This document shows positions 3,564-58,016 of a stretch of DNA of 64,000 nucleotides, piece after piece. Under the pieces are notes generated by a model. That model had not been told where the DNA came from and ran no database searches. It saw only the letters and a program-made list of their open reading frames with translations. Position 1 is the stretch's first letter. Each line of letters starts with the position of its first letter. The DNA is from Bacteroidota bacterium (lineage in GTDB: Bacteria; Bacteroidota; Ignavibacteria; UBA10030; BY39), in contig JAUXOG010000104.1 in NCBI GenBank assembly GCA_030682385.1, forward strand, positions 24,023-88,022, in the 5' to 3' direction. A program made the translations under genes and the position numbers.

Positions 3564-4585
3564 TAGTAATGAAAATTGATGCATCAAAATCTGAAATAGA
3601 TGCAGTAAAAACAAAGATTGAATCGCTCGGATATTCGGCTCACGAAATTCCGGGGGCTGAGCGTGTTGCAATAGGTATCACCGGCAATAAGGGAAAACTC
3701 GATAAAAATCTTTTTATGGGAATGCCGGGAGTTATCGATGCAATTTCGGTTTCCAAGCCATACAAACTTGTAAGCAGAGAAGTAAAACCTGATAATACTG
3801 AAATCCGTTTGGGCGATGAAATTATTGGCGGGAAAGAATTAACCATAATCGCCGGACCTTGCTCGGTTGAAAGCCGTGAACAGATTTTAGAAATGGCTGA
3901 GATGCTGACGTCGGTTGGTGTAAAGTTTTTACGCGGCGGCGCCTACAAGCCACGAACTTCGCCCTATGCGTTTCAAGGATTAAAAAAAGAAGCATTAACT
4001 TACTTGAGTGAAGTTCGCCGGAAAACAGGAATGAAAATAGTAACGGAAGTAAAAGACGTTGCAACGCTTCCTTATGTAGCCGAGGTAGCCGATGTTCTTC
4101 AAATTGGTGCGCGCAATATGCAAAATTTTTCGTTGTTAGAAGCTGTTGGCAGCCTGAAACATCCGGTTCTTTTAAAGCGGGGAATTTCTTCAACCATCGA
4201 AGAATTTTTGATGGCAGCCGAATATATTGTTAATCAAGGAAATTATAATGTGATTTTGTGTGAAAGAGGAATCAGAACGTTTGAAACAGCAACACGTTTT
4301 ACACTCGACTTAAATGCAGTTCCGGTTGTAAAGCATCTTTCGCACCTTCCAATTATAGTCGATCCAAGCCACGGTATCGGTTTGTGGGACGGAGTTTCTT
4401 CGATGTCGATGGCGAGTATTGCAGCGGGCGCCGACGGCTTGATAATCGAAGTTCATAAAAATCCGGAGACCGCACTGTCCGACGGTTATCAATCGCTCAA
4501 ACCTGAAAAGTTCAAAGTGTTAATAAATAAACTAAAACAAATTGCTGAAGTAATGGACCGGTCACTATCATTAACCAAAAATTAG
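3557..4585 (+). CDS. aroF: 3-deoxy-7-phosphoheptulonate (DAHP) synthase, type I-beta, with an N-terminal ferredoxin-like regulatory domain.
   Basis: IAGPCSVES...[28 protein letters not shown]8PS-family core. This is preceded by a roughly 90 aa extra domain. Confidence 0.8.
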
Positions 4586-8343: not shown

Positions 8344-9494
8344 AGGCAGTTGTAATAGGTGCTGGGATGATGGGAAGCGCCCTTGCTTACGACATTGCAC
8401 AGGCAAGCGACATCGAAGAAGTGTTGTTGGCAGATATTAATTTTGAACGTGCGTCGAATGCTGCCAAAAATATTAATAGCAAAGTCAAGCCGGTAAAAAT
8501 TGATGCAAATTCTTATGAAGATATTGTTGGATTGATGACCGGGGCTGATGCAGTAATCAGCGCGGCGTCGTACTCGCTGAATTATATTTTGACAACTGCC
8601 GCAATTGAAGCGGGAGTTCACTTCCTTGACCTCGGCGGTAATAACGATGTAGTAAAAAAACAGCTCCTACTTAACAGGCAGGCACGCGAAGCTCAGGTTT
8701 GTGTGCTGCCGAATTGCGGCTTGGCTCCCGGACTTGTAAATATTTTGGCGATTGAGGGGGCGAAGAAGTTCGATACTGTTGACCAAATCAATCTGCGTGT
8801 TGGCGGTTTGCCGCAGCATCCGCAGCCGCCTTTGAATTATCAGCTCGTTTTTTCTGCCGAAGGGCTGCTAAATGAGTACACCGAACCGGCTGAAGTTATA
8901 AGAAATGGCAACATCATATTTATAAATTCTTTGGACGATGTGGAGGAAATAATTTTTCCGCAACCTTTTGGTGCGCTGGAAGCTTTTAATACTTCTGGCG
9001 GAATATCAACTTTGTGCGATTACTTTCGTGGAAAAGTCCGTGAACTCGATTATAAAACAATCCGCTATAAAGGACATTGCAGTAAGTTTAAGTTATTAAT
9101 CGATTTAGGATTTGCCGGCTCCGAAGCGTTGATGTTCGGAAATACAGTTAAAACAGCCCGCGAGTTGTTCATCGAATTGCTTACTAAAAAATTGGATTAC
9201 AAAGATGAAGATTGTATCTTGTTGCGTGCAACTATTAAAGGGCATATTAACGGGGAAAAAAAATCGCTCGTGTATGAGATGATAGATTACTTTGATAAGC
9301 AGACCCGTATCTCGGCAATGATGCGGACGACTTCGTTCCCGACTTCAATCATCGCACTGATGCTGATGCGTGGCGAAATAAATGCTCGCGGTGTGATGCC
9401 GCCCGAAGAATGTGTCCCTGCGGATAAACTTTTAGAAGAATTAAAAATGCGAAACATTAATATAACTCAATCGTTTGTTGAAGCTGAATTATGA
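8340..9494 (+). CDS. Saccharopine-dehydrogenase-family NAD(P) oxidoreductase (possibly a lysine or carboxynorspermidine dehydrogenase).
   Basis: MKAVVIGAGMMGSALAYDI Rossmann motif and Sacchrp_dh-like length. Confidence 0.55.
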   Translation: MKAVVIGAGMMGSALAYDIAQASDIEEVLLADINFERASNAAKNINSKVKPVKIDANSYEDIVGLMTGADAVISAASYSLNYILTTAAIEAGVHFLDLGGNNDVVKKQLLLNRQAREAQVCVLPNCGLAPGLVNILAIEGAKKFDTVDQINLRVGGLPQHPQPPLNYQLVFSAEGLLNEYTEPAEVIRNGNIIFINSLDDVEEIIFPQPFGALEAFNTSGGISTLCDYFRGKVRELDYKTIRYKGHCSKFKLLIDLGFAGSEALMFGNTVKTARELFIELLTKKLDYKDEDCILLRATIKGHINGEKKSLVYEMIDYFDKQTRISAMMRTTSFPTSIIALMLMRGEINARGVMPPEECVPADKLLEELKMRNINITQSFVEAEL

Positions 9495-9648
9495 AAAAAC
9501 CTTTATCTGTAATTATAATAACAAAAGAGACGAAATCGGAAAAAGAAATCCACCACCGTTACGATTCCGTAACATCATATCCGCGACTTGAAATTATGAA
9601 GATATTGTTCAAGTCGTTATTTAAGATAGGCACAAAAGAAAAGTAACT

Positions 9649-11256
9649 TTGCGAATGTCCATTAAAAATATAATATATCTTTTTACTATACTTATTTTTC
9701 TGAGCCTGAAAGCATTCGGACAGTACTCGACTCAGATAGAATTTTCTCAATCGCCATCCTCGAATACGGTTGTCGGAAGTTTTGTTCGAAATGATGTCCT
9801 CTATGTGTCGTTAAACGATTTGGCTTATGTCTTAAATTTGAAAACATACGTAAACAACGAAGCCAAGAAGATCGAAGTTAAAACCAAATCGTATAAAATA
9901 ATATTGAGTGCAGAAAATTCTTATGTCGTAATAACCGATACAAACGAGAAAGTCAGCGTTCTTCAACTCCAACAAAGAATATATTTTGCAGCCAATTCGT
10001 TTTTTATTCCTATCAAAAGCTTCTTCCAAATTTTCAATAAGTTTTTGGACGAAGAGATTACATTCGATATGAAGCGAAAAACGATTGTAGTCGGGAAACC
10101 AATCGTATCGCCGAAACATGATATTGTGAATATATCCTACGAACCAAAAGCTAACGGAACATTAATTCGTTTACATTCGAGGATAAATTTAACTGATTAC
10201 GATAGCTGGATAAAGTACGAACAAAACGATACCGAAAAGAAACACGGCTGGTTATACATTACTGTTGCCAATGCGAAAGTAAATCTTGATGCTCTGAAAA
10301 AAGTTAAACCATCGGGCATTATTAAAGAACTGCTGATGTTCCCGTCGCCGACCTCAGTTCAATTTACATTTAAGTTAAACGGTGCAGTATCGAATACAGA
10401 AATTATTAAAGCCGACGACAACAACGATTTACTGATTACAATCTATACACCTACCGAGCAACAGTTAGCCGAAAAAAAAGAAAGGCATTACGAAAAAAGT
10501 TTACAGCAACAGCGCGACCGTTGGAAGTTAGATGTTGTCGTAATTGATCCGGGACACGGAGGTAAAGACCCGGGAGCAATCGGCGTTACCAGAACTAAAG
10601 AAAAAGATGTTACATTGGCTGTTGCTTTAAAATTAGGAAAGCTTTTGGAAAAAAATATGCCCGATGTGAAAGTAGTTTATACAAGAAAATCGGATGAGTT
10701 TGTAGAGCTTTACAAGCGCGGGCAAATTGCAAATCAGGTGAACGGGAAGCTATTTATTAGTTTGCATTGCAACGCGGCGGCGCGCAAGCTGCATACTGTA
10801 AAAGGTTTTGAAGTATATTTACTGCGTAAGGGAAAAACAGAGCACGCACTTAAAATTGCTGAACGGGAAAATGCGGTTATTCAATACGAAGAAGGTTACG
10901 AAAACCGGTATCAGGAATTAACAGAAGAAAACTTTATTCTGTTGACGATGGCACAAAGCGCCTACCTAAAATACAGCGAACGATTTGCCGAAATTTCTAC
11001 GCAACAAGTAGCTCGATATACTAATTTAGAAATTCAAGGTGTAAAGCAGGCAGGTTTTTTTGTTCTCGTTGGCGCATCTATGCCGAATGTGCTGGTCGAA
11101 ATGGGTTATCTTTCAAATCGGAGCGATGAAAAATTATTGAAGTCATCCGTTGGACAGAACAAAATTGCCACAGCTCTTTTTAATGCAATCCAAATTTACA
11201 AGAATGAATACGAACAATCGTTGGATGAAGGTAAAACGATGGGGGCGAAGGAGTGA
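9649..11256 (+). CDS. N-acetylmuramoyl-L-alanine amidase (Amidase_3, AmiC-like) with a signal peptide. The ATG at 9655 is the likely start.
   Basis: VVIDPGHGGKDPGAIG...SLHCNA amidase_3 motifs, and a hydrophobic N-terminus. Confidence 0.85.
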   Translation: MRMSIKNIIYLFTILIFLSLKAFGQYSTQIEFSQSPSSNTVVGSFVRNDVLYVSLNDLAYVLNLKTYVNNEAKKIEVKTKSYKIILSAENSYVVITDTNEKVSVLQLQQRIYFAANSFFIPIKSFFQIFNKFLDEEITFDMKRKTIVVGKPIVSPKHDIVNISYEPKANGTLIRLHSRINLTDYDSWIKYEQNDTEKKHGWLYITVANAKVNLDALKKVKPSGIIKELLMFPSPTSVQFTFKLNGAVSNTEIIKADDNNDLLITIYTPTEQQLAEKKERHYEKSLQQQRDRWKLDVVVIDPGHGGKDPGAIGVTRTKEKDVTLAVALKLGKLLEKNMPDVKVVYTRKSDEFVELYKRGQIANQVNGKLFISLHCNAAARKLHTVKGFEVYLLRKGKTEHALKIAERENAVIQYEEGYENRYQELTEENFILLTMAQSAYLKYSERFAEISTQQVARYTNLEIQGVKQAGFFVLVGASMPNVLVEMGYLSNRSDEKLLKSSVGQNKIATALFNAIQIYKNEYEQSLDEGKTMGAKE

Positions 11257-45963: not shown

Positions 45964-46174
45964 TCCTTATATTGATTCAGAAACTAAAATCTCAATTAAT
46001 TATTTTTTATTTATGGATGAAGATAAAAATCTTTTCAACGTATTAAAGTGGATCGGAATAGCAGCTCTCGTTGCCATACCTATTTATTTCATTTCTAAAC
46101 ACGTATTAGAAGAAGAACAACAAGTCGAAGATTTCGACGACGAAAACATATTCGCCGAAGAACTTCAGTAACGG

Positions 46175-48403
46175 TTAAAAATTAGTGTTTCCTTTCGAAG
46201 TTTTATGATCTTCCCAATGTGAAGACGTATGCAGGGAGCAAGGAGCGGGAAGATATTTTTTATTAAATATTTCTTCATAAGTTGAGGGACAAAATTCCGT
46301 AGCCAATCCTTTCGAATCCGAACAGATCAATTCTCGCACAATACCTTCGGGCTGCTGAAAGAATTCTAAGGGTAATCCAATTGATTTATCTTCATAAACG
46401 GAACCCATAAAACGTCCCCAAATTGGAGCTGCCGCTCTTCCGCCTTGACCATCGGCGCTTGTGAAGTGAACGCTTTTATTATCAAATCCCACCCAAACAC
46501 CCGCTGTAAGCTGAGGTGTAAAACCGATAAACCATGAATCGGCATATTCCTGTGTTGTTCCGGTTTTTCCGGCAGCGGGTAAATTGAAATAACTCCGAAC
46601 GCGCGTTCCTGTTCCGCTGTTCACGGCATCTTCTAACATACTGGTAATTATGTATGCAGTTTCTTTACTTAAAACTTCGCGCCGCTCCGATTGATTCTCT
46701 TCGATAATATTTCCATCTTTATCTTCAATTCTAATTATCGAAAAGGGTTGGACATAAACACCATCATTGGGATATACGCTGAATGCCGCAGTAATTTCGA
46801 GCGGCGAAACTTCACCCGTCCCCATCGAAAGCGATTCATAAGGAGGCAGCTTCGATTTTATTCCCATCCTGTTTGCGTATTCAATAACTTGCTGAACGGG
46901 AGCGATCTCCATAATTGCCCGGACTGCAAGCAAGTTAATTGAAAATTTTAATCCTTCTCTGATTGTATTTTTCCCGCCGAAAGTTCCATCAAAATTTTGC
47001 GGAGTCCACCTGCTTCCGTCAACCATCACTAAAGTTACAGGTTGATTTAAAATTTCGAATGAGGGGGGATAGCCATTGTCGATTGCAACCGTATAGACGA
47101 AAGGTTTAAAAGTAGAGCCGGGTTGCCTCTGTATCTGTGTGATGTGGTTCAGTCCGTATTTGAAACTACGGAAATTTGAACCGCCTACCATAGACACTAT
47201 TCCGCCGGAACGGTGGTCGATTGCAACGAAACCGACTTCAATTTGTGTGGAAGATTTTTTTAATGAGTCAATAAAAGCAGAATTGTGGCGTAAACTTTTT
47301 GCGATGCTATCCTTTGCAGATTGTGTTTTTGCCTTCCTGTAAACATCGGAGGTGCGTATTGTATGTGAAATTACGATTTCGAGGACGTCTTTGTTGCGGC
47401 TCCAATTCCATGCTTTTGTAAAATTCGGCTGATAATCTTTAAGATGTTCCTCGACCGCCCGGTTGGCATACCGTTGCATCCGGCTATCGAGTGTAGTATA
47501 AACATTTAAGCCATCACGATAAATATCGAATCCGTATGTTTCCGATTTTTGCATTAATTGCTGCCGAATGTATTCCACAAAATGAGGAGCAACTCCGGTT
47601 ATTCCTTCGCTATTTGCAGAACGGATTTGCAATTCATCGGCTTTTGCTTTTTCTGCTTCAATTTCGGTGAGATAATTATATTTCAACATCTGATCAATCA
47701 CGGTGTTACGCCGGTTAACAGCACGTTCGGGATTGTTTACGGGGTCGTATCTGCCTGGACCTTTCAATAATCCGATGAGCAGGGCGGCTTCGCTGACTGT
47801 TAAATCAGCAGGAATCTTTCCGAAGTAAATTTGCGATGCTGCCGAAATACCATAAGCACTTCTACCGTAGTAAGTTACGTTCAGATACATTTCGATGATT
47901 TCATCTTTCGTGTAGTTCGATTCAATCTGAAATGCAGTAATGAACTCTCGGAATTTACGTGTAATTTTATCGTGAAATTTTTTACGTTCTACTTTTAAGT
48001 CGTATAAATTCCGTGAAAGCTGTTGTGTGATAGTGCTTGCACCTTCCCGCATCTGAAAAGTTATGATGTTTTTTACCATCGCTCTGACAAAGCGTAAAAC
48101 ATCGACACCCCAATGTTGTCTGAAATTTTTATCTTCTGTTGCAATTAAGGCATCGATTAAGTGGGGAGGGAGTTCTTTTAAATTTGCGCGAGTTCTATTT
48201 TTTATGAAAAATTGGTCGAGAACTTCACCATCGATAGAATAAACTTTAGTGGCGAGCTCGGCTTTTGGATTCTCGAGGTCTTCCAATGAAGGTAAACCCG
48301 AGATGATGTATGGAATATAGAAAGCTAAAAATATCAGAAAAATAATGATTGCAAATATTATTTTCTTGCTATGTTTTTTCCAGAATGTTTTTTTTGCAGC
48401 CAT
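46175..48403 (-). CDS. mrcA: Class A penicillin-binding protein 1A (bifunctional transglycosylase/transpeptidase).
   Basis: N-terminal TM anchor, GT51 motifs (EDKNFRQHWGVD) and the transpeptidase STFK motif. Confidence 0.85.
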   Translation of the reverse strand: MAAKKTFWKKHSKKIIFAIIIFLIFLAFYIPYIISGLPSLEDLENPKAELATKVYSIDGEVLDQFFIKNRTRANLKELPPHLIDALIATEDKNFRQHWGVDVLRFVRAMVKNIITFQMREGASTITQQLSRNLYDLKVERKKFHDKITRKFREFITAFQIESNYTKDEIIEMYLNVTYYGRSAYGISAASQIYFGKIPADLTVSEAALLIGLLKGPGRYDPVNNPERAVNRRNTVIDQMLKYNYLTEIEAEKAKADELQIRSANSEGITGVAPHFVEYIRQQLMQKSETYGFDIYRDGLNVYTTLDSRMQRYANRAVEEHLKDYQPNFTKAWNWSRNKDVLEIVISHTIRTSDVYRKAKTQSAKDSIAKSLRHNSAFIDSLKKSSTQIEVGFVAIDHRSGGIVSMVGGSNFRSFKYGLNHITQIQRQPGSTFKPFVYTVAIDNGYPPSFEILNQPVTLVMVDGSRWTPQNFDGTFGGKNTIREGLKFSINLLAVRAIMEIAPVQQVIEYANRMGIKSKLPPYESLSMGTGEVSPLEITAAFSVYPNDGVYVQPFSIIRIEDKDGNIIEENQSERREVLSKETAYIITSMLEDAVNSGTGTRVRSYFNLPAAGKTGTTQEYADSWFIGFTPQLTAGVWVGFDNKSVHFTSADGQGGRAAAPIWGRFMGSVYEDKSIGLPLEFFQQPEGIVRELICSDSKGLATEFCPSTYEEIFNKKYLPAPCSLHTSSHWEDHKTSKGNTNF

Positions 48404-48408
48404 AAAAT

Positions 48409-49140
48409 TTATTTACTTGATGACCATTTATTTAGTGCTATTACGCCGTCAGCCATTTCTGCATAAGAAAAATGCGAAATCCAATCGCCTAAATTAACAT
48501 ACAAACCGTTCCCGATTTTCTGGAAACTCGGTTCGTGCCGGTGCCCCATAATAACGATATCGTAACCTTCCTGAATTTTTCTTTCGGCGGCTTTTTTCAT
48601 TCCGTCGTCTTCACCGAAGTGTTTATTCGAGGAATGTTTACGGCTCGTACGCGAAATTTTTTTTGCCAAAGTAACTCCTAAATCGGGATGGAGCATTCTG
48701 TAAAGTTTAATGTTAATCGGGCTTCTCAGAATTTTTTTTAGAATATTATAACCGTGGTCGTTCAACGTAAAGCCGTCTCCGTGGTGCATAAATATTTTTT
48801 TTCCATCCAGAACAATATCGAATGCGTCGAAGTGAACGCTTATTCCCAAGTCGTCCGTAAAAAAATTGTCCATCCAATAATCGTGGTTGCCTGCAAGGTA
48901 ATGAACTTTTATGTTGTTTCTGACTAACTCGTCGAGTTTTGAAATCGTGCGATGGAATCCCCGTGGTATCACGGTTTTGTATTCAAACCAGGCATCAAAC
49001 AAGTCGCCTAAAATATAGAGCGAATCGGCATCTCTTTTAATATGATCAAAAAACGAGAGCAGAAGCGTTTCTTTTTTTGCCTCTGTCTCTTTGTTCCCCA
49101 ATCCTAAGTGAGCGTCGGAAATGAAATATGCTTTTGGCAT
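48409..49140 (-). CDS. Calcineurin-like metallophosphoesterase, UDP-2,3-diacylglucosamine diphosphatase (LpxH)-like.
   Basis: YFISDAHLG...ILGDLFDAW...GNHD motifs. Confidence 0.65.
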   Translation of the reverse strand: MPKAYFISDAHLGLGNKETEAKKETLLLSFFDHIKRDADSLYILGDLFDAWFEYKTVIPRGFHRTISKLDELVRNNIKVHYLAGNHDYWMDNFFTDDLGISVHFDAFDIVLDGKKIFMHHGDGFTLNDHGYNILKKILRSPINIKLYRMLHPDLGVTLAKKISRTSRKHSSNKHFGEDDGMKKAAERKIQEGYDIVIMGHRHEPSFQKIGNGLYVNLGDWISHFSYAEMADGVIALNKWSSSK

Positions 49141-49142
49141 TC

Positions 49143-49571
49143 TTATTTTTCTACAACAATATTAAGTTGAATTGTTTGTTGAAACCGGCTGCACCATCCT
49201 TCTTCATCTGAACAATAAAAATATGTAAGTGTTCCTTTAAGTTGATGTTTTCCGGGTTTTAGTTTTTTATTCAAGGTAAAACTTTGCTTTACTGGTTTTT
49301 TCAAATTTAAATATTCGCTTCCTTTTGCTTTGGGAACATCGAGTTTACTTAATGCAGCAAATTTTTTATCTATTTCTACTTCAATAGGAGGGTCTAAATT
49401 TATGTGAATGCCTTCTTGCGTGGCGAATGTAAATAAAATTTCAGCATTACCGCCTGCTTTTATCGTTGCCGGTTTTACCGAAGTATATACCTGAACATAT
49501 TCGTTTTCGTCGTCACAGAACAGATATAATGGCAACAATAATAGTATGAAAATTGAGATTAGTTTCTGCAC
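49143..49571 (-). CDS. Small secreted/lipoprotein-like hypothetical protein. GTG start.
   Basis: Signal peptide MQKLISIFILLLLPLYLFC. No recognised domain. Confidence 0.5.
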   Translation of the reverse strand: MQKLISIFILLLLPLYLFCDDENEYVQVYTSVKPATIKAGGNAEILFTFATQEGIHINLDPPIEVEIDKKFAALSKLDVPKAKGSEYLNLKKPVKQSFTLNKKLKPGKHQLKGTLTYFYCSDEEGWCSRFQQTIQLNIVVEK

Positions 49572-49646
49572 ATTAACCTTTGTTTTTAAATAATACTACT
49601 CATTTTTACGAAAATTTAAGGGAAAAAGCAAATAGGCTATTGCTAA
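49570..49646 (-). promoter_or_regulatory. Promoter plus leader of gene 49143-49571, reading on the minus strand as TTGCTT-17nt-TAAAAAT then AAAGGTTAAT-GTG. This is copy 1 of a duplicated roughly 45 bp element.
   Basis: -35/-10-like hexamers with 17 nt spacing, and an RBS-like AAAGG 5 nt upstream of the GTG. A near-identical copy lies at 54688-54738. Confidence 0.45.
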
Positions 49647-49687
49647 TTGTATCTTTTTATATTATATATATAGTGAAAGGAAAAATT

Positions 49688-51949
49688 ATGAAAATTACAA
49701 TTCGTTTAATATTGTCGCTGCTTTTTGTCGCAATATTAGTTGCAGGCGTATTTTCATACTTTCAAATTCGCCTCGAAAGACAAGACCAGATTGAAGAACT
49801 TAATCGCCGCTGTATTTTGTTGGCTGAGAGTCTACAGGAATCCATTAAAAATTTACTTCCCCCTAATTATAAAACAAAGTTAAATCAATTAGTCGAAAAA
49901 TTTGGTAATCGGGAACGCCTTTACGGAATTGTAATATACGATGGTCAAAACGATATTTTAGCTATAACTCCAGGGCTTACAGTTAGAATTCCTGAACATA
50001 TAGCGCAGCTAAAATCTTCATTTGATGAAGACACAACAAAATATTCTGTTGAAACTTTACATAGTAAAGAAATTCATACCTATATCTATCTTATGAAGGA
50101 GGATGGGAAAGTACTCGGGAAGCTGGGGCTTTTTCATGACATTTCATACATTAACACGCGACTCGAAAACATTTGGCGATATAATTTTATTCGGCTTCTG
50201 ACTTTATCACTATTAATTATAGTTACAACAGTATTGGTTGTTCGTTGGAGTATAGTTGGCCCAATAGCTAAGATCGCTGATCGGTTAAAATATTTAAGAA
50301 TGGGTAAAAGCACAAAAAATATTGATATTCCCCAAGGAGATATTTTAGGTCCACTCGCTATCGAAGTAACTCACTTAGCAAAAAGTTTATCGATTGCAAG
50401 AGCAAAAGCTGAAGAGGAAGCCAGGTTAAGAATTATTGGCGAGAAGACGTGGACGGCAGAACGATTAAAAGAACATGTGCGTATGGAACTTGGTGAAAAG
50501 AATTTAATTTTGGTTTCAAATCGAGAACCATATATGCATATTAAAAAAGGTCGAAAAATAGAAAGCATTATCCCGGCAGGAGGTTTGGTTACGGCTTTAG
50601 ACCCGGTGCTTCGTGCTTGCGGAGGAGTGTGGGTAGCACACGGAAGTGGAGATGCCGATGTTGAGACTGCTGATAAAGATGGAAAATTAAAAGTGCCACC
50701 CGAGGAGCCACTATATACACTGAAGCGCGTTTGGTTAAACAAAGAAGAAGAAGAGGGATACTACTATGGATTTTCAAACGAAGGTATTTGGCCCCTTTGC
50801 CACATTACACATACCAGACCTGATTTCAGATTAGAAGATTGGATATATTATCAAAAAGTAAACGAAAAATTTGCTGAAGCTGTTTTAGAAGAAATAAAAA
50901 ATGAAAATGAACCATTAGTTATTATTCAAGATTATCATTTTGCATTATTACCTTTTTTGATAAAATCAAAAAGACCCGATGCTAAGGTTGCAATATTTTG
51001 GCATATCCCTTGGCCCAACCCGGAAGCGTTTAGTATATGTCCGTGGCAGAAGGAAATTTTAGTCGGTTTATTAGGTGCCGATTTGATAGGGTTTCATATC
51101 CAGTTTCACTGCAATAATTTTTTGGAAACTGTTGATAGGGTTTTAGAATCAAAAATTAATTGGGAACAATTTTTTGTAGAAAAAGGCGGTCAAACTACAT
51201 TTGTGAAACCATTTCCGATAAGTGTTGCTTTCCCAAGTCTTCTCGATGCGCAATTCGCTGAATCCAGATCAAACGAATTAATTAAATCGGAAATATTTAA
51301 TGAGTTAGGTATTGCGTCCGAGTATTTAGGTGTCGGAGTAGATAGGATCGATTACACAAAAGGAATCATCGAGCGGTTTAAAGCCATCGAAAGGTTTTTC
51401 GAAAAGCATCCCAATTACATAGGAAAATTTACTTTTGTTGAATTAGGAGCGCCAAGCCGAACTCATATAAAACGTTATCACGATTTAATTGCAGAAGTAG
51501 AAACCACGGTAGAAAAAATATGCTGGAAGTTTCAATCAATAAATTGGAAACCGATTGTTTTTCTTAAAGCACATCATAGTCACCAAGATATCAACCGTTA
51601 TTATAAAGGTTCAGATGTGTGTATGGTTACTTCGTTACACGACGGAATGAATTTGGTGGCTAAAGAATTCGTTTCCGCACGAAATGATGAAGATGGTATT
51701 TTGATTTTAAGCCAGTTTACCGGTGCATCGAGAGAATTACAGGACGCTATCATGGTCAATCCTTATGATATTGAACAAACGGCTGATGCAATATATACTG
51801 CCCTAAATATGAAAGTTGAGGAGAGGAAAGAAAGGATGCAGCATCTCCGCGGTGTAATTAGAGATCGGAATATTTACAGATGGGCTGGAAATTTGATTTC
51901 AACATTAAATCGAATTCGTATTTCAAAAGCTGTCGAAGAACCAGTTTGA
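49688..51949 (+). CDS. otsA: Membrane-anchored sensor-HAMP-trehalose-6-phosphate synthase fusion (GT20 OtsA catalytic domain preceded by TM1, a periplasmic domain, TM2 and HAMP).
   Basis: C-terminal roughly 480 aa carries the OtsA/GT20 pattern (LILVSNREPY...GGLVTAL...). The N-terminal roughly 250 aa has two hydrophobic helices flanking a roughly 145 aa loop, and a HAMP-like amphipathic segment (IVGPIAKIADRLKYLRMGK...). AAAGGA RBS before the ATG at 49688. Confidence 0.75.
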   Translation: MKITIRLILSLLFVAILVAGVFSYFQIRLERQDQIEELNRRCILLAESLQESIKNLLPPNYKTKLNQLVEKFGNRERLYGIVIYDGQNDILAITPGLTVRIPEHIAQLKSSFDEDTTKYSVETLHSKEIHTYIYLMKEDGKVLGKLGLFHDISYINTRLENIWRYNFIRLLTLSLLIIVTTVLVVRWSIVGPIAKIADRLKYLRMGKSTKNIDIPQGDILGPLAIEVTHLAKSLSIARAKAEEEARLRIIGEKTWTAERLKEHVRMELGEKNLILVSNREPYMHIKKGRKIESIIPAGGLVTALDPVLRACGGVWVAHGSGDADVETADKDGKLKVPPEEPLYTLKRVWLNKEEEEGYYYGFSNEGIWPLCHITHTRPDFRLEDWIYYQKVNEKFAEAVLEEIKNENEPLVIIQDYHFALLPFLIKSKRPDAKVAIFWHIPWPNPEAFSICPWQKEILVGLLGADLIGFHIQFHCNNFLETVDRVLESKINWEQFFVEKGGQTTFVKPFPISVAFPSLLDAQFAESRSNELIKSEIFNELGIASEYLGVGVDRIDYTKGIIERFKAIERFFEKHPNYIGKFTFVELGAPSRTHIKRYHDLIAEVETTVEKICWKFQSINWKPIVFLKAHHSHQDINRYYKGSDVCMVTSLHDGMNLVAKEFVSARNDEDGILILSQFTGASRELQDAIMVNPYDIEQTADAIYTALNMKVEERKERMQHLRGVIRDRNIYRWAGNLISTLNRIRISKAVEEPV

Positions 51950-51953
51950 CGAA

Positions 51954-52772
51954 ATGAAACCGAAGTATTTATTCGATAAAAGATATATTGCTTGGAATAC
52001 GCTCCAGATTAAATTGCTCAATTTGAATAGACCTATTTTTATTTTTCTGGACTATGACGGCACAATTGTTCCTATTCAAGAAAAACCTAAACAAGCAATA
52101 CTACCCGAATCCACAAAATTACTGCTCGACTCATTAGCTCATCATCCAAATGCTTATGTCGGGATTGTCAGCGGTAGGTCGATGAAGGATATCAGAAGAA
52201 TGGTAAAACTAACTTCTCTATTTTACATAGCCAATCATGGATATGAAATATATTCCAGAAAAATTAAATGGTCTCATCCGATAGTAACTGATATAGTACC
52301 AATACTGAAAAAACTCCGTACCAATTTTGAAAAGAGTCTTAAAGCAATCCATGGTGTTTTGATTGAAAATAAAATTATAACTTTAAGTATTCATTACCGA
52401 CAATTATCTGGAACTCCCGTTTCTACACTTAAAAAAATAATAAAAAGTAAAATGCAGGAGTATTCGCGTTGCCTGAAAATTTCTTCAGGTAAAAAGGTTT
52501 TTGAAATCAAGCCGAGAATTAATTGGAACAAAGGAAAGGCAATTTTTAAACTGATAGAATTATTTAATGTTACCGCAAAACCGCTCATCGTATATATCGG
52601 AGACGACAGAACAGATGAGGATGCCTTTCGGCTTTTGCCAAAGGAGGCATTTACTATCTATGTTGGTAGCAATTTCTCTTCGAAAGCAAAATATTTATTA
52701 AATCACCCGAATGAAGTTATTTTATTCTTAAAGAAACTGAATCATTCCCTCGTTCTTAGAAAGGAGATGTAA
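51954..52772 (+). CDS. otsB: Trehalose-6-phosphate phosphatase (HAD family).
   Basis: FLDYDGTIVPI HAD motif I and the GDDRTDEDAF motif. Confidence 0.8.
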   Translation: MKPKYLFDKRYIAWNTLQIKLLNLNRPIFIFLDYDGTIVPIQEKPKQAILPESTKLLLDSLAHHPNAYVGIVSGRSMKDIRRMVKLTSLFYIANHGYEIYSRKIKWSHPIVTDIVPILKKLRTNFEKSLKAIHGVLIENKIITLSIHYRQLSGTPVSTLKKIIKSKMQEYSRCLKISSGKKVFEIKPRINWNKGKAIFKLIELFNVTAKPLIVYIGDDRTDEDAFRLLPKEAFTIYVGSNFSSKAKYLLNHPNEVILFLKKLNHSLVLRKEM

Positions 52773-52776
52773 TAGT

Positions 52777-53451
52777 ATGGCTAAAAACGGACCATTTTAT
52801 TTCCATACCCGGCAAAACTTAATATATCTTACCGGAAGAAAAGCAAAAAATTTAAAAGAATTATTGGATGGTATTAAAGAAGCCCCCAGCTCGTCGATAT
52901 ATTATCATACTCATCATTATTTACAGCAGCACGAGTATTTATCACCCGAACCGCCAAACGATTTTGCTTATTGGATAAAAAATGTTTATCAAGAGAACGT
53001 CCTGGCTGAGAGGTTAGCGAGTATGGATTTAAGAACGTTTAATAGATTAAGAGATATTCGCTTGCGGTTAATTGAGATTATTCAAGAAGTGATTAACAGT
53101 GAAGGGTTTGCCGATCGTAACGTACCAAAGGGCATGGAATTTCATTTTATGAAAGCTCAAACATTTATTTTTCCTACAAAAAATCAAGCAAATAATTTAT
53201 TGGAATTTAAAGAGTCTCTGGCTAAGGTTTCGTTAAACTCAATTTATTTTCATATGTTTGAATCCAGACTTAGGCTTGAAAGCGACTTATGCGATTTTTC
53301 AATTTGGTTAAGAGATTCGCTTGGTGAAGATAAATTAGCCAAAGAGTTCAGCTCACTTGACCCGTACACTCACACTCTCGAAAGTTTAAGGTCTAAAATT
53401 ATCAAACTTATCACTAAACGAATCGAGGAGGCTGCAAATGTTAACAATTAG
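52777..53451 (+). CDS. Hypothetical protein (224 aa) within the trehalose module.
   Basis: Intact ORF overlapping the treT start by 14 nt. No motif recognised. Confidence 0.45.
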   Translation: MAKNGPFYFHTRQNLIYLTGRKAKNLKELLDGIKEAPSSSIYYHTHHYLQQHEYLSPEPPNDFAYWIKNVYQENVLAERLASMDLRTFNRLRDIRLRLIEIIQEVINSEGFADRNVPKGMEFHFMKAQTFIFPTKNQANNLLEFKESLAKVSLNSIYFHMFESRLRLESDLCDFSIWLRDSLGEDKLAKEFSSLDPYTHTLESLRSKIIKLITKRIEEAANVNN

Positions 53452-54658
53452 AGATTACGAACCGGTTGTTGGTGCTGATGTTATAGATGAGCTTGAGCTT
53501 TTTGCGGGCAGATTATCAGGTAAGGTCATACAGAACATAAATTCGACCGCAGTAGGAGGTGGTGTTGCAGAAATTTTAATTCGTATGATTCCGCTTCTGA
53601 AAGACATCGGCGTTGACGCCCGCTGGGATGTGATAAAAGGCGACGAGAAATTCTTCCAAGTTACCAAAAAAATGCACAATGCCTTACACGGCAGCAAGGT
53701 GAATTTTTCTAAAGAAGAAATAGAAATATTTATAGAAACAAATAAAATGAATGCGGCTAGTATGGATTTGATGGGAGATATTATGTTTATCCACGACCCG
53801 CAGCCGATTGGTCTCGTGGAAAAAAAGGTTAAAGACCAAAAGTGGATATGGAGGTGCCATATTGATTTTTCGAGACCGGACGAATTCACTTGGAATTTTC
53901 TGAAAAATTATATAGAGAAATACAACATTAGTATTTTTTCTGCTCCATCGTTTGCTCGTCAACTTGTAATCCCCCAAGTTTTGATATCCCCATCAATTGA
54001 CCCGCTGAGCGATAAGAATCGAGACTTACCGCGGGAGACAATAGACCGTGTGCTAGAGCAATTTAATATTGATAAAAACCGGCCTATCGTTACACAGATA
54101 TCACGCTTCGATTATCTCAAAGACCCGGTGGGAGTTGTAAAGGCTTATCACCAAGTTAAAAAGTATATAGATTGTCAACTCGTACTCGCCGGTGGCGGTG
54201 CTACAGATGATCCTGAGGGTGAAAAAGTACTCGCCGAAGTTCAAGAAGCTGTGGGGGTTGATAAAGATATTTTTCTATTATTACTTCCACCGGCAAGCGA
54301 TATTGAAATAAATGCTTTACAGCGAGCATCTACTGTGGTATTGCAAAAATCACTCCGCGAGGGTTTTGGATTAACAGTTGCCGAAGCGCTCTGGAAATCA
54401 AAACCGGTAATTGCTGGGGCTGTAGGTGGTATCCCTTTACAGATCACTAACAAGTACTCAGGTTTATTGACTAATACAATTGAAGGTACTGCTTTTGCGC
54501 TAAAACAATTACTGCAGAATCCAGATTATGCTAAACGCTTAGGTGAAAATGGACACGAGCATATAAAGAAAAATTATTTAATTACCCGGCATCTTAAAGA
54601 TTATCTATTGTTGTTTCTTTCGCTAGATCATCAGGGTGAGAATATAGTTAATTTATAG
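53438..54658 (+). CDS. treT: Trehalose glycosyltransferring synthase (TreT, GT4).
   Basis: NSTAVGGGVAEIL, WRCHID, SPSIDPLS, ITQISRFD, DDPEG, QKSLREGFGLTV motifs closely match archaeal/thermophile TreT. Confidence 0.8.
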   Translation: MLTIRDYEPVVGADVIDELELFAGRLSGKVIQNINSTAVGGGVAEILIRMIPLLKDIGVDARWDVIKGDEKFFQVTKKMHNALHGSKVNFSKEEIEIFIETNKMNAASMDLMGDIMFIHDPQPIGLVEKKVKDQKWIWRCHIDFSRPDEFTWNFLKNYIEKYNISIFSAPSFARQLVIPQVLISPSIDPLSDKNRDLPRETIDRVLEQFNIDKNRPIVTQISRFDYLKDPVGVVKAYHQVKKYIDCQLVLAGGGATDDPEGEKVLAEVQEAVGVDKDIFLLLLPPASDIEINALQRASTVVLQKSLREGFGLTVAEALWKSKPVIAGAVGGIPLQITNKYSGLLTNTIEGTAFALKQLLQNPDYAKRLGENGHEHIKKNYLITRHLKDYLLLFLSLDHQGENIVNL

Positions 54659-54687
54659 ACAGACTTTTATCAAGTATATTAATTTTT

Positions 54688-54738
54688 TCACATTAACCTT
54701 TATTTTTACGAAAAATTAAGGGAAAAAGCAAATGAAAA
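54688..54738 (-). repeat. Copy 2 of the promoter/leader element. It is followed on the minus strand by a degenerate remnant ORF (GTG-MKKLIYLIKVCL*) resembling the first codons of gene 49143-49571.
   Basis: cacattaacctttatttttacgaaaaattaagggaaaaagcaaat, versus 49570-49640 (with a 20 bp indel). Confidence 0.55.
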
Positions 54739-54932
54739 TTATTAACACGCGAGGTTGAGAGAAATGAACTACTTTTATGTGCGAACATTTACTGGGGTAG
54801 GTTATAATTTGCATCCTCAAATTGTGGAGCGTCATTGTTTAGCGTGTTAGGCGATTGTGGCAGCCTTCGTTCATCCCCTTCTTCTGAATAACATCAAAAG
54901 GTTTACTATATCCTTTTATCTCATCTTTGTTG

Positions 54933-55772
54933 CTAATGTTGCAAAACCAATGTTGGTGGCTGTGCTTTATCAAACTTTAATTTCGGTTGTATTTCGATTA
55001 GGCGAACTCGTTCTCTCGCAATTTTACAATACTCGTGGCTGATGTCAATACCAATGTAATTTCTATGCATTTCACAGGCTACTCTTGGCGTTGTTCCGCT
55101 GCCACACATTGGGTCAAGAACAACGTCACCGGAATTTGTCCAAGAGAAAATATGGTCTCTCACAAGTTCGCAAGGAAATGGTGCTGGGTGTCCTTTCGCT
55201 TCTTGGTCTTCTTGTCTTTTGCCGACGACATATTCCCAAATATTGCCTTTAATTTTTTTATCTTTTACTGGCTTTGCTAATTTCTCTCTTGTCTGCTCGT
55301 TCTTTGAATAGTTTTTGTAGGTTGTGCCGTTGAGTTCTAAACCTGCGTGCATACAGTCAACTAAGATTGGGTTATGTGTCTTAACTACGCCCTTGCTGAA
55401 TACGAACATATACTCAAACTCATTGGTGTATCTCTTGCGATAGATTTGAGGGATTGGATTTTTCTTTCTGAAAATCATTGTGTCGTGTAGATTGAACCCA
55501 ATTTCCTTAAAATACATAGCTTGCTTAAAACTTGTTCCAGTTTCCGTAGCGTCAATTGTTGCATCAGCAACAACCCAAACCACCACACCGCCTAGTTTTG
55601 TAATGCGGAATAATTCTTTTACTATGTCTTCAAATGGGAAAATATAGCCCTTATAGTTTCTTAAATCATCGTAAGGTGGTGAGGTAACAGTCAAGTCAAT
55701 TACGTCATCTTGAAATTTTTTCATTACTTCAACGCAATTACCTTCAATGATTTTGTTTATATATTTTTCCAT
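54933..55772 (-). CDS. Beta-class DNA amino-methyltransferase (N6-adenine or N4-cytosine), the partner of the adjacent restriction enzyme.
   Basis: LTVTSPPYDD (motif IV) after DPMCGSGTT (motif I), in the circularly permuted beta order. Confidence 0.8.
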   Translation of the reverse strand: MEKYINKIIEGNCVEVMKKFQDDVIDLTVTSPPYDDLRNYKGYIFPFEDIVKELFRITKLGGVVVWVVADATIDATETGTSFKQAMYFKEIGFNLHDTMIFRKKNPIPQIYRKRYTNEFEYMFVFSKGVVKTHNPILVDCMHAGLELNGTTYKNYSKNEQTREKLAKPVKDKKIKGNIWEYVVGKRQEDQEAKGHPAPFPCELVRDHIFSWTNSGDVVLDPMCGSGTTPRVACEMHRNYIGIDISHEYCKIARERVRLIEIQPKLKFDKAQPPTLVLQH

Positions 55773-55781
55773 ATTTTTAAG

Positions 55782-56696
55782 CTATATTATTGAGAATAAA
55801 CCATTGTCTGAAATCGCTTTAATTGTTTTAATCTTGCTTTCAATTTTGTGAACTTTAATAAGTTCTTTCAGAGCTTCTTGATGGCTCATTCGCATAATCT
55901 TTTCCCGTTCTTGTGCTAAAAAAGTCAGGGCTTCTTCCTTTGCAATGTTTATTGATTCTGTAGCTGCTTGTTTTTCAATACCCCAGAGATTTTCGATTTT
56001 TTTTGAAAATGTCAGCATAGCCTTGTTTACTGCTAACCAATAGTCGTTAGCGTTTTTAGAAGGATTGATGGCGGGAACAGTTTGAAAAATTGTTTTTAGC
56101 AGTTGTTGGGCTTTTGCTTTGCTTTCAACTTCTGAAAATGCCAAGAGTAAAGCGAGGTGTGAGTATGTAAAAACACAAACATTATAAGTAGTCGCTTGCT
56201 GATAGATTTGGCTTGAAGTGTTTGGAAGTTGATAAATTGGGCATACAACCATTGCATAGGGTTTGCCTCGTTTCCAACCGCCCATTGCCTGAACTTTAAA
56301 GTCCTTCTGGTTTTTAGCTGTTCTGCTAAGTCGGAAAGATTTAGCGTCTGCAACAAGACTGTAATCTTTAGCAAATGCTTCAACGTCTGCTGCATCGGCT
56401 CTTTCTTTCAGCACCAAACTTTTAAGCCCTAATGCTTTATAGGATAAAGAAAGTAAAGCGTCTGTGTATTTAGAGTAAAGTTTTTCTTCGCTTGTGTCGT
56501 GCCCATAAGATTCTGGTATATTACCGCAAAGTCTTAAATGGTCAATAAGTGCGGCTATTCCCGATTTTTTTATTTCTGCTTCTAATTCTTTTTCTAAACG
56601 GTCAGAGTCGTTACTGAAATTTCCGCTTAGTTTACGGATTTCGTCAACCCAATAAGCTCGCCTTTTTCCTGCTTTGTCCGATATAATATTTTTCAT
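55782..56696 (-). CDS. HindIII-family type II restriction endonuclease.
   Basis: LVADAKSFRLSRTAKNQKDFKV block, and the following Y/PxxQ...SQI region, closely resemble R.HindIII as I recall it. 304 aa (R.HindIII is about 300 aa). Confidence 0.6.
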   Translation of the reverse strand: MKNIISDKAGKRRAYWVDEIRKLSGNFSNDSDRLEKELEAEIKKSGIAALIDHLRLCGNIPESYGHDTSEEKLYSKYTDALLSLSYKALGLKSLVLKERADAADVEAFAKDYSLVADAKSFRLSRTAKNQKDFKVQAMGGWKRGKPYAMVVCPIYQLPNTSSQIYQQATTYNVCVFTYSHLALLLAFSEVESKAKAQQLLKTIFQTVPAINPSKNANDYWLAVNKAMLTFSKKIENLWGIEKQAATESINIAKEEALTFLAQEREKIMRMSHQEALKELIKVHKIESKIKTIKAISDNGLFSII

Positions 56697-56744: not shown

Positions 56745-58016
56745 TCAAACGTTGATTGTTGTTTTCTCTTCCACTCTCTGCAGCAATATTAATCCCACGA
56801 GCATCAATACTCCAACTGAAATTATAGCAACCCGCTGGTTGAATCCCGAAGAGATAAAACCAAAAAGTAGAGGTCCGATGATAGCGGAAGCTTTTCCGAA
56901 GAAAGAATAAAACCCGAAAAATTCAGTCTTCTTTTCAAACGGTGTAATTTTCGACATCAAACTTCGGCTCGTTGATTGCGACGAACCAAGAGCCAATCCG
57001 GCAAGAACTCCTACAAAATAAAATATTACTTTGCTTGTAACAAAGTATGCAATCACCACAATAATTAACCACAAAATTAACGTGAGACTTAAAGTTCGCT
57101 TTTGCCCGAAGTGGTCAGAAAGAATTCCAAATAAAATTGAACCGATAATGGCTGAAGTCTGCACTATTGCGAAAAAGATTATGATTTCTGATATCTCGAA
57201 GTGCAAAGTTTCGCGTGCAAAAATTGAAGAGAAAATAATTATTGTATTAATCGCATCAATGTAAATGAAATAGGATAACAAAAACTTTCCGATGTTTTTA
57301 TATTTATTAAATTCTTTGAAAGTGGATTTAACTCTTTTGTATCCGATGCTCACGAAGTTTAATTTTAAACTTGCAGTTCTGTTTTTTTCCTTCAGGAATA
57401 GAAATAAGGGGATAGAAAAAATGAGAAAAAAACCGGCGCCAATCAGAAAACTTATTTGAACGTTAAAAATATTTTCAGGAACAAAACCTTTGATATAAAA
57501 AGGGAAGGCGATGAGCAAGGTAAACAGCGAGCCGATATAACCCATCGCAAAACCATAACCGGAAACTCTGCCATAACTTCGTTGAGTAGTAATTTCAGGA
57601 AGGAATGAGTCGTAAAAAACCAAACCCGCTTCGAAACCAATATTAGCAAGAATCAATAGCAAGATTCCTAATAAAACTGTTGATTCTGCCGTAAAAAATA
57701 ATCCGCTTGTTGCTAAAATACAGAGGAGAGTAAAAATAAGGAGGAAGCGTTTTTTACCGGCACCGTAATCAGCAACGGCGCCTAAAATGGGCGAAATTAT
57801 AGCAACAATCAGCATAGATATGCTGAAAGCTAATCCCCACAGGAAGTCGCCGTCTTTACCCCCTTGGTTTATAATTTCTTTAAAAAAAAGGGGGTAGCCA
57901 ACAGTTAGAATTAGAACATAAAAAGCGGTGTTTGCAAAATCGAAAAGAGCCCAGACAAAAATTTGAGAACGGTTAGAAGTATGGTGCAAATTTGCATCGG
58001 GGCTCTTATCGTCCAT
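56745..58016 (-). CDS. MFS transporter, UMF1/Atg22-like family.
   Basis: 12 predicted TM helices. N-terminal WALFDFANTAFYVLI pattern typical of PF11700. Confidence 0.7.
   Translation of the reverse strand: MDDKSPDANLHHTSNRSQIFVWALFDFANTAFYVLILTVGYPLFFKEIINQGGKDGDFLWGLAFSISMLIVAIISPILGAVADYGAGKKRFLLIFTLLCILATSGLFFTAESTVLLGILLLILANIGFEAGLVFYDSFLPEITTQRSYGRVSGYGFAMGYIGSLFTLLIAFPFYIKGFVPENIFNVQISFLIGAGFFLIFSIPLFLFLKEKNRTASLKLNFVSIGYKRVKSTFKEFNKYKNIGKFLLSYFIYIDAINTIIIFSSIFARETLHFEISEIIIFFAIVQTSAIIGSILFGILSDHFGQKRTLSLTLILWLIIVVIAYFVTSKVIFYFVGVLAGLALGSSQSTSRSLMSKITPFEKKTEFFGFYSFFGKASAIIGPLLFGFISSGFNQRVAIISVGVLMLVGLILLQRVEEKTTINV

Follow-up and report, generated by a model that had tools for sequence, protein, structure and literature searches.

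The question raised by this locus is whether a trehalose operon flanked by two direct copies of a short, promoter-bearing element is an inserted or recombined cassette bounded by that repeat, as a first-pass annotation of the window (the whole 64-kb stretch of DNA analysed) had proposed. The two copies of the repeat both lie on the minus strand, and they stand among the following features (loci from related genomes are designated below by L numbers):

49143..49571, minus strand: secP, encoding a 142-aa secreted protein with an invariant GIHINLDPP + YCS..GWC.RF motif
49558..49633, minus strand: copy 1 of the repeat, the long form (76 nt), with core, leader, GTG and the first 4-5 codons of secP
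49569-49571, minus strand: GTG start of secP
49572-49601, minus strand: 30-nt leader of copy 1, with AAAGG
49602-49633, minus strand: conserved 32-nt core of copy 1, TTGCTT-17-TAAAAAT
49634..49687, plus strand: otsA upstream region, outside the repeat and back to back with copy 1
49688..54658, plus strand: trehalose block otsA-otsB-DUF5752-treT, assigned by Pfam
49688-51949, plus strand: otsA, a GT20 protein with a 270-aa N-terminal extension
51954-52772, plus strand: otsB, trehalose phosphatase
52777-53451, plus strand: DUF5752 gene, assigned by Pfam
53438-54658, plus strand: treT, encoding TreT
54653..54691, minus strand: 12-codon remnant ORF (M)KKLIYLIKVCL*, downstream of copy 2
54678..54733, minus strand: copy 2 of the repeat, the short form (56 nt), with the core, then AAAGGTTAAT, GTG and 4-5 codons
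54702-54733, minus strand: core of copy 2, the same as that of copy 1 with one A>T change
54734..54932, no strand: spacer from the stop codon of M to copy 2, its first ~90 nt common to L002
54933..56696, minus strand: HindIII-type RM pair, M at 54933-55772 (N6_N4_Mtase) and R at 55782-56696 (RE_HindIII)
56745..58016, minus strand: MFS/ATG22-type transporter, the conserved left-hand neighbour of secP in relatives

A repeat search of the window returned two collinear matches between the copies, one joining 49558-49588 to 54678-54708 (31 nt, 87%, spacing 5120) and the other joining 49583-49633 to 54683-54733 (spacing 5100, with one difference in the last 27 nt). The two spacings mean that copy 1 carries 20 extra bases, and a gapped alignment of the copies gives 52/56 identical positions and a single gap, of 20 nt, in copy 2. 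Each copy has, on the minus strand, the hexamers TTGCTT-17 nt-TAAAAA(T). The duplicated element described in the first pass is thus present where it had been placed, with slightly different limits: the earlier ranges overshot by 13 nt at copy 1 (49646 against 49633) and by 5 nt at copy 2 (54738 against 54733), and they missed about 10 nt that reach into the first codons. Each half of the repeat occurs exactly twice in the 64-kb window at up to 3 mismatches, for chance expectations of 0.08 and 0.35 matches. Copy 2 is no assembly artefact: the same run gave an independently assembled Logan contig (SRR13727541_166189, 5224 nt) that reaches from otsB and treT through copy 2, M and R to MFS, and window positions 54640-54940 recur in it with 100% identity. 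The element is not a generic motif either: there are two copies in the window and one per related locus, and a search of 241 million JGI metagenome records yielded 2 matches, both 5' of secP. Folding energies at both copies are no better than those of shuffles (z from -1.1 to +1.0), an Rfam search of the window gave no matches, copy 2 shows nothing resembling a terminator, and there is no tRNA at the site.

The element belongs to secP. About 20 related Ignavibacteriales loci (L001-L020, L093 and L094) have its near-invariant 32-nt core, ATTTGCTTTTTCCCTTAAATTTTCGTAAAAAT, with 0-6 mismatches, each of them once and in every case directly 5' of secP; they include L010, L016, L018 and L020, which never had the trehalose block nearby. 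The conservation starts sharply at ATTTG and ends at TAAAAAT, the flanks being unalignable, and the homology of the window with L009, L012 and L016 begins exactly at 49633. This position and conservation show the element to be the promoter region of secP, and we read the 32-nt core as the native core promoter of that gene. In L016 and L018 an ATG stands 7-8 nt past TAAAAAT, a spacing that agrees with a leaderless transcript and speaks for TAAAAAT being the -10 element. This -10 matches sigma-70 at 5/6 positions and the -35, TTGCTT, matches TTGACA at just 3/6, so the site is absent from a consensus promoter scan, whose consensus does not cover the Ignavibacteria promoter type. A Bacteroides-type -33/-7 motif was also considered and rejected, TTTG and TAAATTTT being merely 10 nt apart as read from the sequence. 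The earlier suggestion that the secreted-protein gene has had its 5' end and the region ahead of it duplicated is supported, and copy 1 is probably the working, orthologous copy. The secP protein itself has weak similarity to DsbD_N.

The trehalose genes were identified by Pfam matches that all lie above the cut-offs (GT20, 2e-117; trehalose phosphatase, 8e-45; TreT_GT1 and GT1, 3e-56), and no literature on DUF5752 was found. In the otsA upstream region, TTGCTA-17-TATATA is a candidate promoter of otsA and AAAGGA its putative RBS; TTGCTA/TTGCAA also occurs in L019 and L017. The block of the window and that of L019 occupy the same site and share 93.7% nucleotide identity over 4977 nt, with flanks about 70% identical, and a block that is ~94% identical within such flanks indicates horizontal transfer. 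In about 55 related loci the block is absent and MFS directly adjoins secP, the ancestral gene order GDH-NusB-MFS-secP-Mphos-PBP1 being kept. These loci and the L019-type lineage, which has the block, bear out the earlier view of a variable 5-kb insert between secP and MFS/nusB. Pfam assigned the block trehalose-pathway genes and nothing else, and Pfam and a repeat search found no integrase, transposase or terminal inverted repeats in it.

On the other side of copy 2, Pfam confirms the HindIII-like RM that had been placed just past the block (PF09518 at 8e-116 and PF01555 at 2e-44, both ORFs intact). In L002 and L009 the two genes have decayed, and relatives further away lack them; AAGCTT is not depleted, with 20 sites for 21 expected. 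The species group has at least four haplotypes at this site. That of the window runs R-M-copy 2-block-copy 1. L002 has the decayed RM, the block and the secP promoter; L097 and L012 have the block, then a cargo with an integrase fragment and DUF4365, then the promoter; L009 and L014 have RM remnants followed by the promoter, without the block. The integrase C-terminal fragment of L012 and L097 was detected at E = 0.0056, below the Pfam cut-off. All the breakpoints fall at most 5 nt from the 5' edge of the element.

The comparison of related genomes does not bear out the claim that the repeat delimits a cassette. L002/L013, L097 and L019 carry the block at the site with copy 1 only, so that the arrangement which the first-pass annotation had itself named as refuting its claim, the block without the repeat, occurs three times, and these block-bearing genomes imply that the repeat is not a cassette end, an att site or a regular target duplication. 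Copy 2 is absent from them, as well as from L003 and L006, and is known from one genome only. The junction between the block and copy 1 is common to L019 and L017, lineages just ~70% identical, and therefore predates copy 2. Since copy 2 carries an RBS/start-codon region specific to this species group, it must be much younger than the residence of the block at the site.

The structure of copy 2 gives some hints as to where it came from. Its 20-nt gap corresponds to a deletion between the 7-nt direct repeats TAAAAAT of the L009/L014 allele, the missing 20 nt being those found between the two TAAAAAT in that allele; this deletion takes out the native leader. A junction specific to copy 2 reads CGTAAAAATAAAGGTTAATGTGAAAAAATTAATATAC. 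Among the 4/56 positions at which it differs from copy 1, copy 2 has the outgroup state GTGAAAAAA (MKK) where copy 1 has GTGCAGAAA (MQK), and the TTC directly upstream of the element agrees with L009, L012 and L014, not with copy 1. These states imply that copy 2 is not a fresh copy of copy 1. Copy 2 is nearly equidistant from all the alleles of the species group (3-5 differences in 56-60 nt), so that arguments about its allele of origin rest on two or three sites. The 12-codon remnant reported in the first pass is present, its last sense codon (codon 12) overlapping the treT stop codon, and only its first 4-5 codons are clearly homologous to secP. Homology beyond codon 5 was rejected, the identities to database homologues being at most 6/12, which is typical of signal peptides. 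By eye, and not by computation, the remnant resembles the N-termini of L019 and L015 (MKKLVYLI and MKILVYLI), a likeness that is suggestive only.

The 15 nt past the treT stop codon (54659-54673) are shared exactly with L002, with two substitutions with L097, and not with L019. The 114 nt at 54734-54847, which adjoin copy 2 upstream, have no detectable relative. Patches of similarity to the spacers upstream of the promoter in L009 and L012 were seen by eye and rejected as homology, their alignment scores lying within those of shuffles (z = 1.5 and 1.0). In place of 170 nt of the window, among them copy 2, L002 and L097 have a 59-mer of unrelated sequence, and the 59-mer of L002 shows no homology to these 170 nt (p = 0.4). 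Either state, the 59-mer or copy 2, could be ancestral.

Copy 2 is probably, though far from certainly, a strain-specific and decaying recombination scar left by homology-facilitated illegitimate recombination. In that case, the parental arrangements would have been RM-promoter-secP and block-promoter-secP, and a segment with the promoter and first codons of secP at its end would have become attached, by an illegitimate joint, to the trehalose operon at its 3' end. The partner crossover would have taken place in the homologous flanking DNA, giving one homologous crossover and one illegitimate joint, and the product would keep the promoter and 5' codons of the recipient (copy 2), a full promoter-secP coming in together with the block (copy 1), or vice versa. 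Both of the proposed parental arrangements have been observed among the haplotypes of the species group. The right side of the site is continuous homologous DNA; where the 5' codons of secP meet the 3' end of treT, homology stops after codon 5. Against this reading, a parental haplotype with the exact spacer of the window was not found among the related loci, the 114 nt next to copy 2 align with nothing, copy 2 is about as far from one species-group allele as from another, and it is known from a single genome. The recombination route, the order of events and the functional inertness of copy 2 are what we infer from this structure. A broader idea, possible but doubtful, is that the secP core (32-39 nt) acts as a recombination anchor that steers mobile cargo to one intergenic site across Ignavibacteriales. 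The core is identical in lineages whose flanking genes are just ~70% identical, and an identical stretch of 32-39 nt is long enough for strand invasion. The cargo would then include the trehalose operon, the RM genes and the integrase-fragment island, and copy 2 would be the footprint of an event whose illegitimate joint fell inside secP and not upstream of the promoter.

Several other scenarios may explain the repeat. One possibility, which we consider unlikely, is that the block entered an RM-promoter-secP genome without a mobility gene and that its insertion left 56-76 bp of the target (promoter and first codons) duplicated at either end. Such an event would be expected to give direct repeats of more than 30 bp (here 56 and 76 nt) around a 5.0-kb insert without integrase or transposase, L009 (and L014) could represent the empty site, with one copy, no block and a collinear right side, and in published cases the repeats measure 46 to ~420 bp and mobility genes are lacking (PMC2853133). 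Nevertheless, L002, L019 and L017, which have no copy 2, already show the block joined to copy 1; the block thus seems to have arrived with its own promoter copy and the target was not duplicated. The left flank of copy 2 (114-180 nt) is also not collinear with the empty-site genome, and the copies differ at 7% of positions and by a 20-nt indel. It is likewise improbable that copy 2 is old, the product of some kind of duplication in the common ancestor of the species group that was lost everywhere except here, and that the L009-type genomes arose when the two copies recombined and the block was deleted. The outgroup-like states of copy 2 at two polymorphic sites are consistent with this scenario, L009 and L014 have RM remnants followed by a single promoter and no block, as a deletion between the copies would leave, and the sequence past the treT stop codon (15 nt) is the same in L002 and has two substitutions in L097. 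Yet several independent losses would be required, the spacers of L009 and the window are unalignable, and the 59-mer of L002 and L097 is a replacement and no clean deletion.

Copy 2 could alternatively have been maintained as a promoter, either for an antisense RNA across the 3' end of treT or for insulating the convergent RM and trehalose units. All the core positions that are invariant across relatives are intact in copy 2, and there is no terminator-like site on the minus strand between copy 2 and treT, so far in keeping with a working promoter. However, copy 2 occurs in one genome only and is missing from L002, L097 and L019, its leader has been deleted and the sequence has decayed past codon 5, RNA folding in the region is not significant (z = -0.6 and -1.1), and a generic sigma-70 scan does not flag the site (TTGCTT against TTGACA, 3/6), which makes this reading decidedly improbable. 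Antisense transcription into treT from copy 2 is in itself possible, to judge from its intact hexamers. Finally, we give hardly any credence to the copies being the attL and attR of an integrative element that inserts site-specifically, or to the repeat being a generic motif or due to chance. Direct repeats do flank a variable block, and an integrase C-terminal fragment is found at the hotspot in L012 and L097, but the block contains no recombinase domain and the other block-bearing genomes (L002, L097 and L019) have one copy. A generic motif is at odds with an element known solely 5' of secP, where both of its matches among the 241 million metagenome records lie, and a chance match with an expectation of at most 0.35 per half.

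The locus offers an example, from uncultured Ignavibacteriales, of a single small intergenic site that gains and loses a stress-protection operon and a defence system, and it provides a clear case of a whole trehalose operon passing between lineages into the same position. It also calls for caution when a flanking direct repeat is read as a cassette boundary with one genome alone available. As a candidate source of antisense transcripts, the orphan promoter can be tested cheaply. These results do not point to any new mechanism, and the finding is an ordinary one.

The closest known process would be homology-facilitated illegitimate recombination (de Vries & Wackernagel 2002; Prudhomme et al. 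2002; Meier & Wackernagel 2003, as cited in PMC5361080; PMC3240628), described in PMC5361080 as one end being anchored by homology and the other joined illegitimately, which adds foreign genes. The same paper mentions orphaned fragments of displaced resident sequence, such as Vibrio T6SS orphan immunity genes and orphaned Rhs 3' regions. The likeness lies in an event with an anchor and an illegitimate join that leaves an orphaned fragment. Nevertheless, the orphan is here a promoter with 5' codons, not a 3' gene fragment, and the mechanism is deduced from structure only. Insertion with long target duplication (Nobusato et al. 2000; Furuta et al. 2010, PMC2853133) has been described from Helicobacter, Haemophilus and other bacteria, where the gene blocks concerned are mostly RM systems (PMC2853133). 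It resembles the present locus in its direct repeats of more than 30 bp, a block of a few kb without mobility genes, an intraspecific empty site with one copy and the presence of RM at the locus. It differs in that the repeats here flank a trehalose operon and not RM genes, that the block carries its own "target" copy in genomes without the second copy, and that the flank by copy 2 is not collinear with the empty site. Lastly, the locus is similar to chromosomal integration hotspots, or variable islets amid conserved core genes, one intergenic site between the syntenic MFS and secP receiving a cargo that varies by strain: the trehalose operon, a type II RM, the integrase-fragment/DUF4365 island and decayed remnants. 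Unlike such hotspots, it has no tRNA or recombinase associated with it, and it is very small, with all the breakpoints abutting the 5' edge of a 32-nt ultraconserved promoter core.

The trehalose genes and their neighbours lie in an Ignavibacteriales-type "Bacteroidota bacterium" MAG, where the following features were delimited (protein families from Pfam, except for secP):

46175-48403: class A PBP
48409-49140: metallophosphoesterase
49143-49571, minus strand: secP, secreted protein
49558-49633: copy 1 of the repeated element (76 nt), 5' of secP
49688-51949: GT20 OtsA with an N-terminal extension of about 270 aa
51954-52772: trehalose phosphatase (OtsB)
52777-53451: DUF5752 protein
53438-54658: TreT
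54678-54733: copy 2 of the element (56 nt), beside the treT 3' end
54734-54932: spacer
54933-55772: N6_N4 methyltransferase (M)
55782-56696: RE_HindIII endonuclease (R)
56745-58016: ATG22/MFS transporter (MFS)

The duplicated element claimed by the first-pass annotation is borne out by the repeat search of the window, which returned two collinear direct matches: 49558-49588 with 54678-54708 (31 nt, 87%) and 49583-49633 with 54683-54733. Since their start-to-start spacings are 5120 and 5100, copy 1 has 20 extra bases, and the gapped alignment of the copies has 52/56 identities and one 20-nt gap. Each half of the repeat occurs only twice in the window with three mismatches permitted (chance expectation 0.08 and 0.35). 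The minus strand of both copies reads ATTTGCTTTTTCCCTTAA(A/T)TTTTCGTAAAAAT. In copy 1, this is followed by a 30-nt leader, AAAGG and the GTG of the 142-aa ORF; in copy 2, AAAGGTTAATGTG follows at once, and then a 12-codon ORF, (M)KKLIYLIKVCL*, whose final sense codon runs into the stop codon of treT. An assembly artefact of the MAG was ruled out as the source of copy 2, because a Logan contig assembled independently from the same run, covering otsB, treT, copy 2, M, R and MFS, is identical to the window across 54640-54940. Two further Logan contigs from different samples (L004 and L011) both start, at their position 1, at the same base within the element (TTCCCTTAAATTTTCG...); in those communities, the assembly graph thus seems to branch at the promoter, owing to strain heterogeneity or to a second copy.

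The element was studied in 97 related loci, a few of which repeat a contig already represented; they came from exact-protein look-ups, a secP-alignment scan of species-representative genomes and a search of metagenomes with the element as query. Wherever secP is about 47% identical or more, the locus has one 32-nt conserved core, always directly 5' of secP and with 0-6 mismatches, including four (L010, L016, L018 and L020) where trehalose genes are not nearby; the core was not found elsewhere in these loci. A search of 241 million JGI metagenome records gave two exact matches to the core, both in front of secP. In the multiple alignment, conservation starts abruptly at ATTTG and stops at TAAAAAT, and both flanks are unalignable. 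The ATG of L016 and L018 stands 7-8 nt past TAAAAAT, as expected if a leaderless transcript were to start just downstream of the -10 box. From its position and conservation, we conclude that the element should be the native core promoter of secP, possibly overlapped by an operator. With only 3/6 positions of TTGCTT agreeing with TTGACA, the element escapes a generic sigma-70 scan. Both strands of both copies fold no better than shuffled sequence, and an Rfam search of the window had no matches.

The secP family has the invariant motifs GIHIN..P and YCS..GWC.RF and a weak, sub-threshold similarity to DsbD_N (PF11412, E about 1e-3). Throughout Ignavibacteria, secP lies in synteny with the metallophosphoesterase and class A PBP genes, and the family reaches Acidobacteriota and Kryptonia. 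Immediately past the PBP gene, the gene calls of all close relatives and of L010 place a 52-aa ORF on the other strand, for which Pfam has no hit (L002 13401-13559; window near 46000-46170). The N-terminal extension of OtsA (residues 1-270, 49688-50500) begins with a hydrophobic N-terminus and also lacks a Pfam match; it is kept in L017 (76% aa identity over residues 1-749). A 789-aa TTG-start ORF, present in the ORF listing and in one gene caller, would extend through copy 1 and is probably an over-extension of otsA.

The order GDH-NusB-MFS-secP-metallophosphoesterase-PBP1, with MFS directly adjoining secP, was found in about 55 loci of the tblastn synteny table, which agrees with the earlier claim of an inserted or recombined block (otsA-otsB-DUF5752-treT) between secP and MFS. 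The block is present there in only a few: the window, L002/L013 (GCA_947085405.1, flanks about 95-97% identical to the window at the nucleotide level), L097 (GCA_030017895.1, about 94%), L019 (an Ignavibaceriaceae MAG, flanks about 70%) and L017/L093. Partial evidence comes from L012, where the otsA 5' end lies at the contig start, and from L015. The complete block of L019 (4841-9817) is 93.7% identical to the window (54661-49685) over 4977 nt, from 3 nt before the otsA ATG at 49688 to 3 nt after the treT stop. Identity falls within a few bases of both ends (from 85-98% to 55-75% at the otsA start in a 250-nt sliding profile), and the block occupies the same MFS/secP site. This points clearly to horizontal transfer of the whole trehalose operon between lineages into the same site. 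The block of L017 is no closer to the window than are its flanks, at about 70% identity each, which fits vertical descent. L015, otherwise without the block, has a decayed OtsA N-terminal fragment (9431-9795; aa 1-122, 43-57% identical) between MFS and the promoter, which reads as a deletion scar and thus as evidence of block loss. The block is thus a long-standing resident beside the secP promoter, and it has been repeatedly lost and exchanged between lineages.

Four arrangements were seen in the species group, that is, among loci with secP 90-100% identical:

Haplotype 1 (window): MFS-R-M-spacer-copy 2-block-copy 1-secP
Haplotype 2 (L002/L013, L003, L006): palindrome array replacing R, split M, unrelated 59-mer, block, single promoter
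Haplotype 3 (L097, L012): block, different cargo, spacer, then promoter
Haplotype 4 (L009, L014): R and M remnants, spacer, single promoter, without block

The 59-mer of L002 type also adjoins treT in L097. The cargo between otsA and the secP promoter (L012 248-3052; L097 15875-16363) encodes a DUF4365 protein, three hypothetical proteins and a 79-aa fragment that weakly resembles the C-terminal part of phage integrases (E = 0.0056). In L002, an array of short palindromes (3440-3780; ATCCCTGAAGGGAT, ATCCCTATCGGGAT, TCCCAAAGGGA and others) takes the place of the R.HindIII gene, and a GC-rich palindromic insert of some 100 nt (4332-4430) interrupts M; these may be REP- or MITE-like elements. The methyltransferase of the RM pair (54933-56696) has >7000 database relatives at E < 1e-60, many of them 80-89% identical, and the few source-named ones come from several Bacteroidota/Chlorobi-type lineages, which suggests that this HindIII-type RM is mobile. 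The window has 20 AAGCTT sites vs 21 expected, and thus no depletion.

No second copy of the element was found in haplotypes 2-4 of the species group, nor in L019. Those among them with the block share the arrangement but lack the repeat, an outcome that the first-pass annotation itself had named as a refutation; the repeat therefore does not belong to the cassette as such. The duplication proposed in the first-pass annotation stands, and its reading as a cassette boundary does not. All breakpoints fall within 5 nt of the element's 5' edge: window homology with L009, L012 and L016 begins at 49633, and that with L097 on the otsA side stops at 49638. Such clustering is what one would see if selection kept the promoter intact at a site of frequent insertion.

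The species-group-specific AAAGGTTAATGTG region is present in copy 2 and absent from L017 and L019, and the block-promoter junction is common to the window, L017 and L019; copy 2 thus arose within or near the species group, long after that junction. It is no fresh duplicate of copy 1: 4/56 positions differ; in place of the GTGCAGAAA of copy 1 it has GTGAAAAAA, as do the outgroups L019, L015 and L094; and the TTC that immediately precedes the element is found in L009, L012 and L014 as well. The 20-nt gap matches exactly a deletion between the two TAAAAAT direct repeats of the L009/L014 allele. The simplest route would be recombination between two haplotypes: block-promoter-secP DNA would have entered an RM-promoter-secP genome, or the reverse, with one crossover within homologous DNA and an illegitimate joint linking about codon 5 of secP to the treT 3' end, which would orphan the promoter and 5' codons of the resident secP. 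Each of the two parental arrangements occurs among the genomes sampled, and homology-facilitated events are known from experiments and from genome comparisons, with orphaned fragments seen at T6SS and Rhs loci (PMC5361080; PMC3240628). We only lean towards this route, because nothing related to the 114 nt adjoining copy 2 was detected, the species-group alleles all stand at almost the same distance from copy 2, and the 59-mer of L002/L097 has no homology with the window's 170 nt. It seems unlikely that copy 2 is an old duplication kept only in the window, and equally so that it reflects a true insertion with long target duplication; against the latter, genomes without copy 2 already have the promoter at the otsA end of the block.

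The core of copy 2 retains every position that is invariant among relatives, and no terminator-like site lies between it and treT on the minus strand, so that copy 2 could drive transcription antisense to the treT 3' end, as earlier suggested; read-through from the RM genes would equally do so. The intact core positions would be compatible with a maintained function, but copy 2 is found in one genome only, its leader is deleted and the sequence past codon 5 is decayed, which makes such a function very improbable.

Among known systems, an att-site identity of the repeat was rejected, the test for att sites of an integrative element having failed outright. The likeness to insertion with long target duplication (PMC2853133) is superficial, as in that case the repeat is the duplicated target, unlike the repeat of the window. 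The ultraconserved promoter core might be a homology anchor that targets cargo to the site across lineages about 70% identical, although we hold this to be a rather doubtful idea. The MFS/secP site resembles chromosomal insertion hotspots between conserved core genes, and copy 2 resembles the scars of homology-facilitated recombination; nothing observed requires a new mechanism, and the locus is an ordinary but well-documented example.
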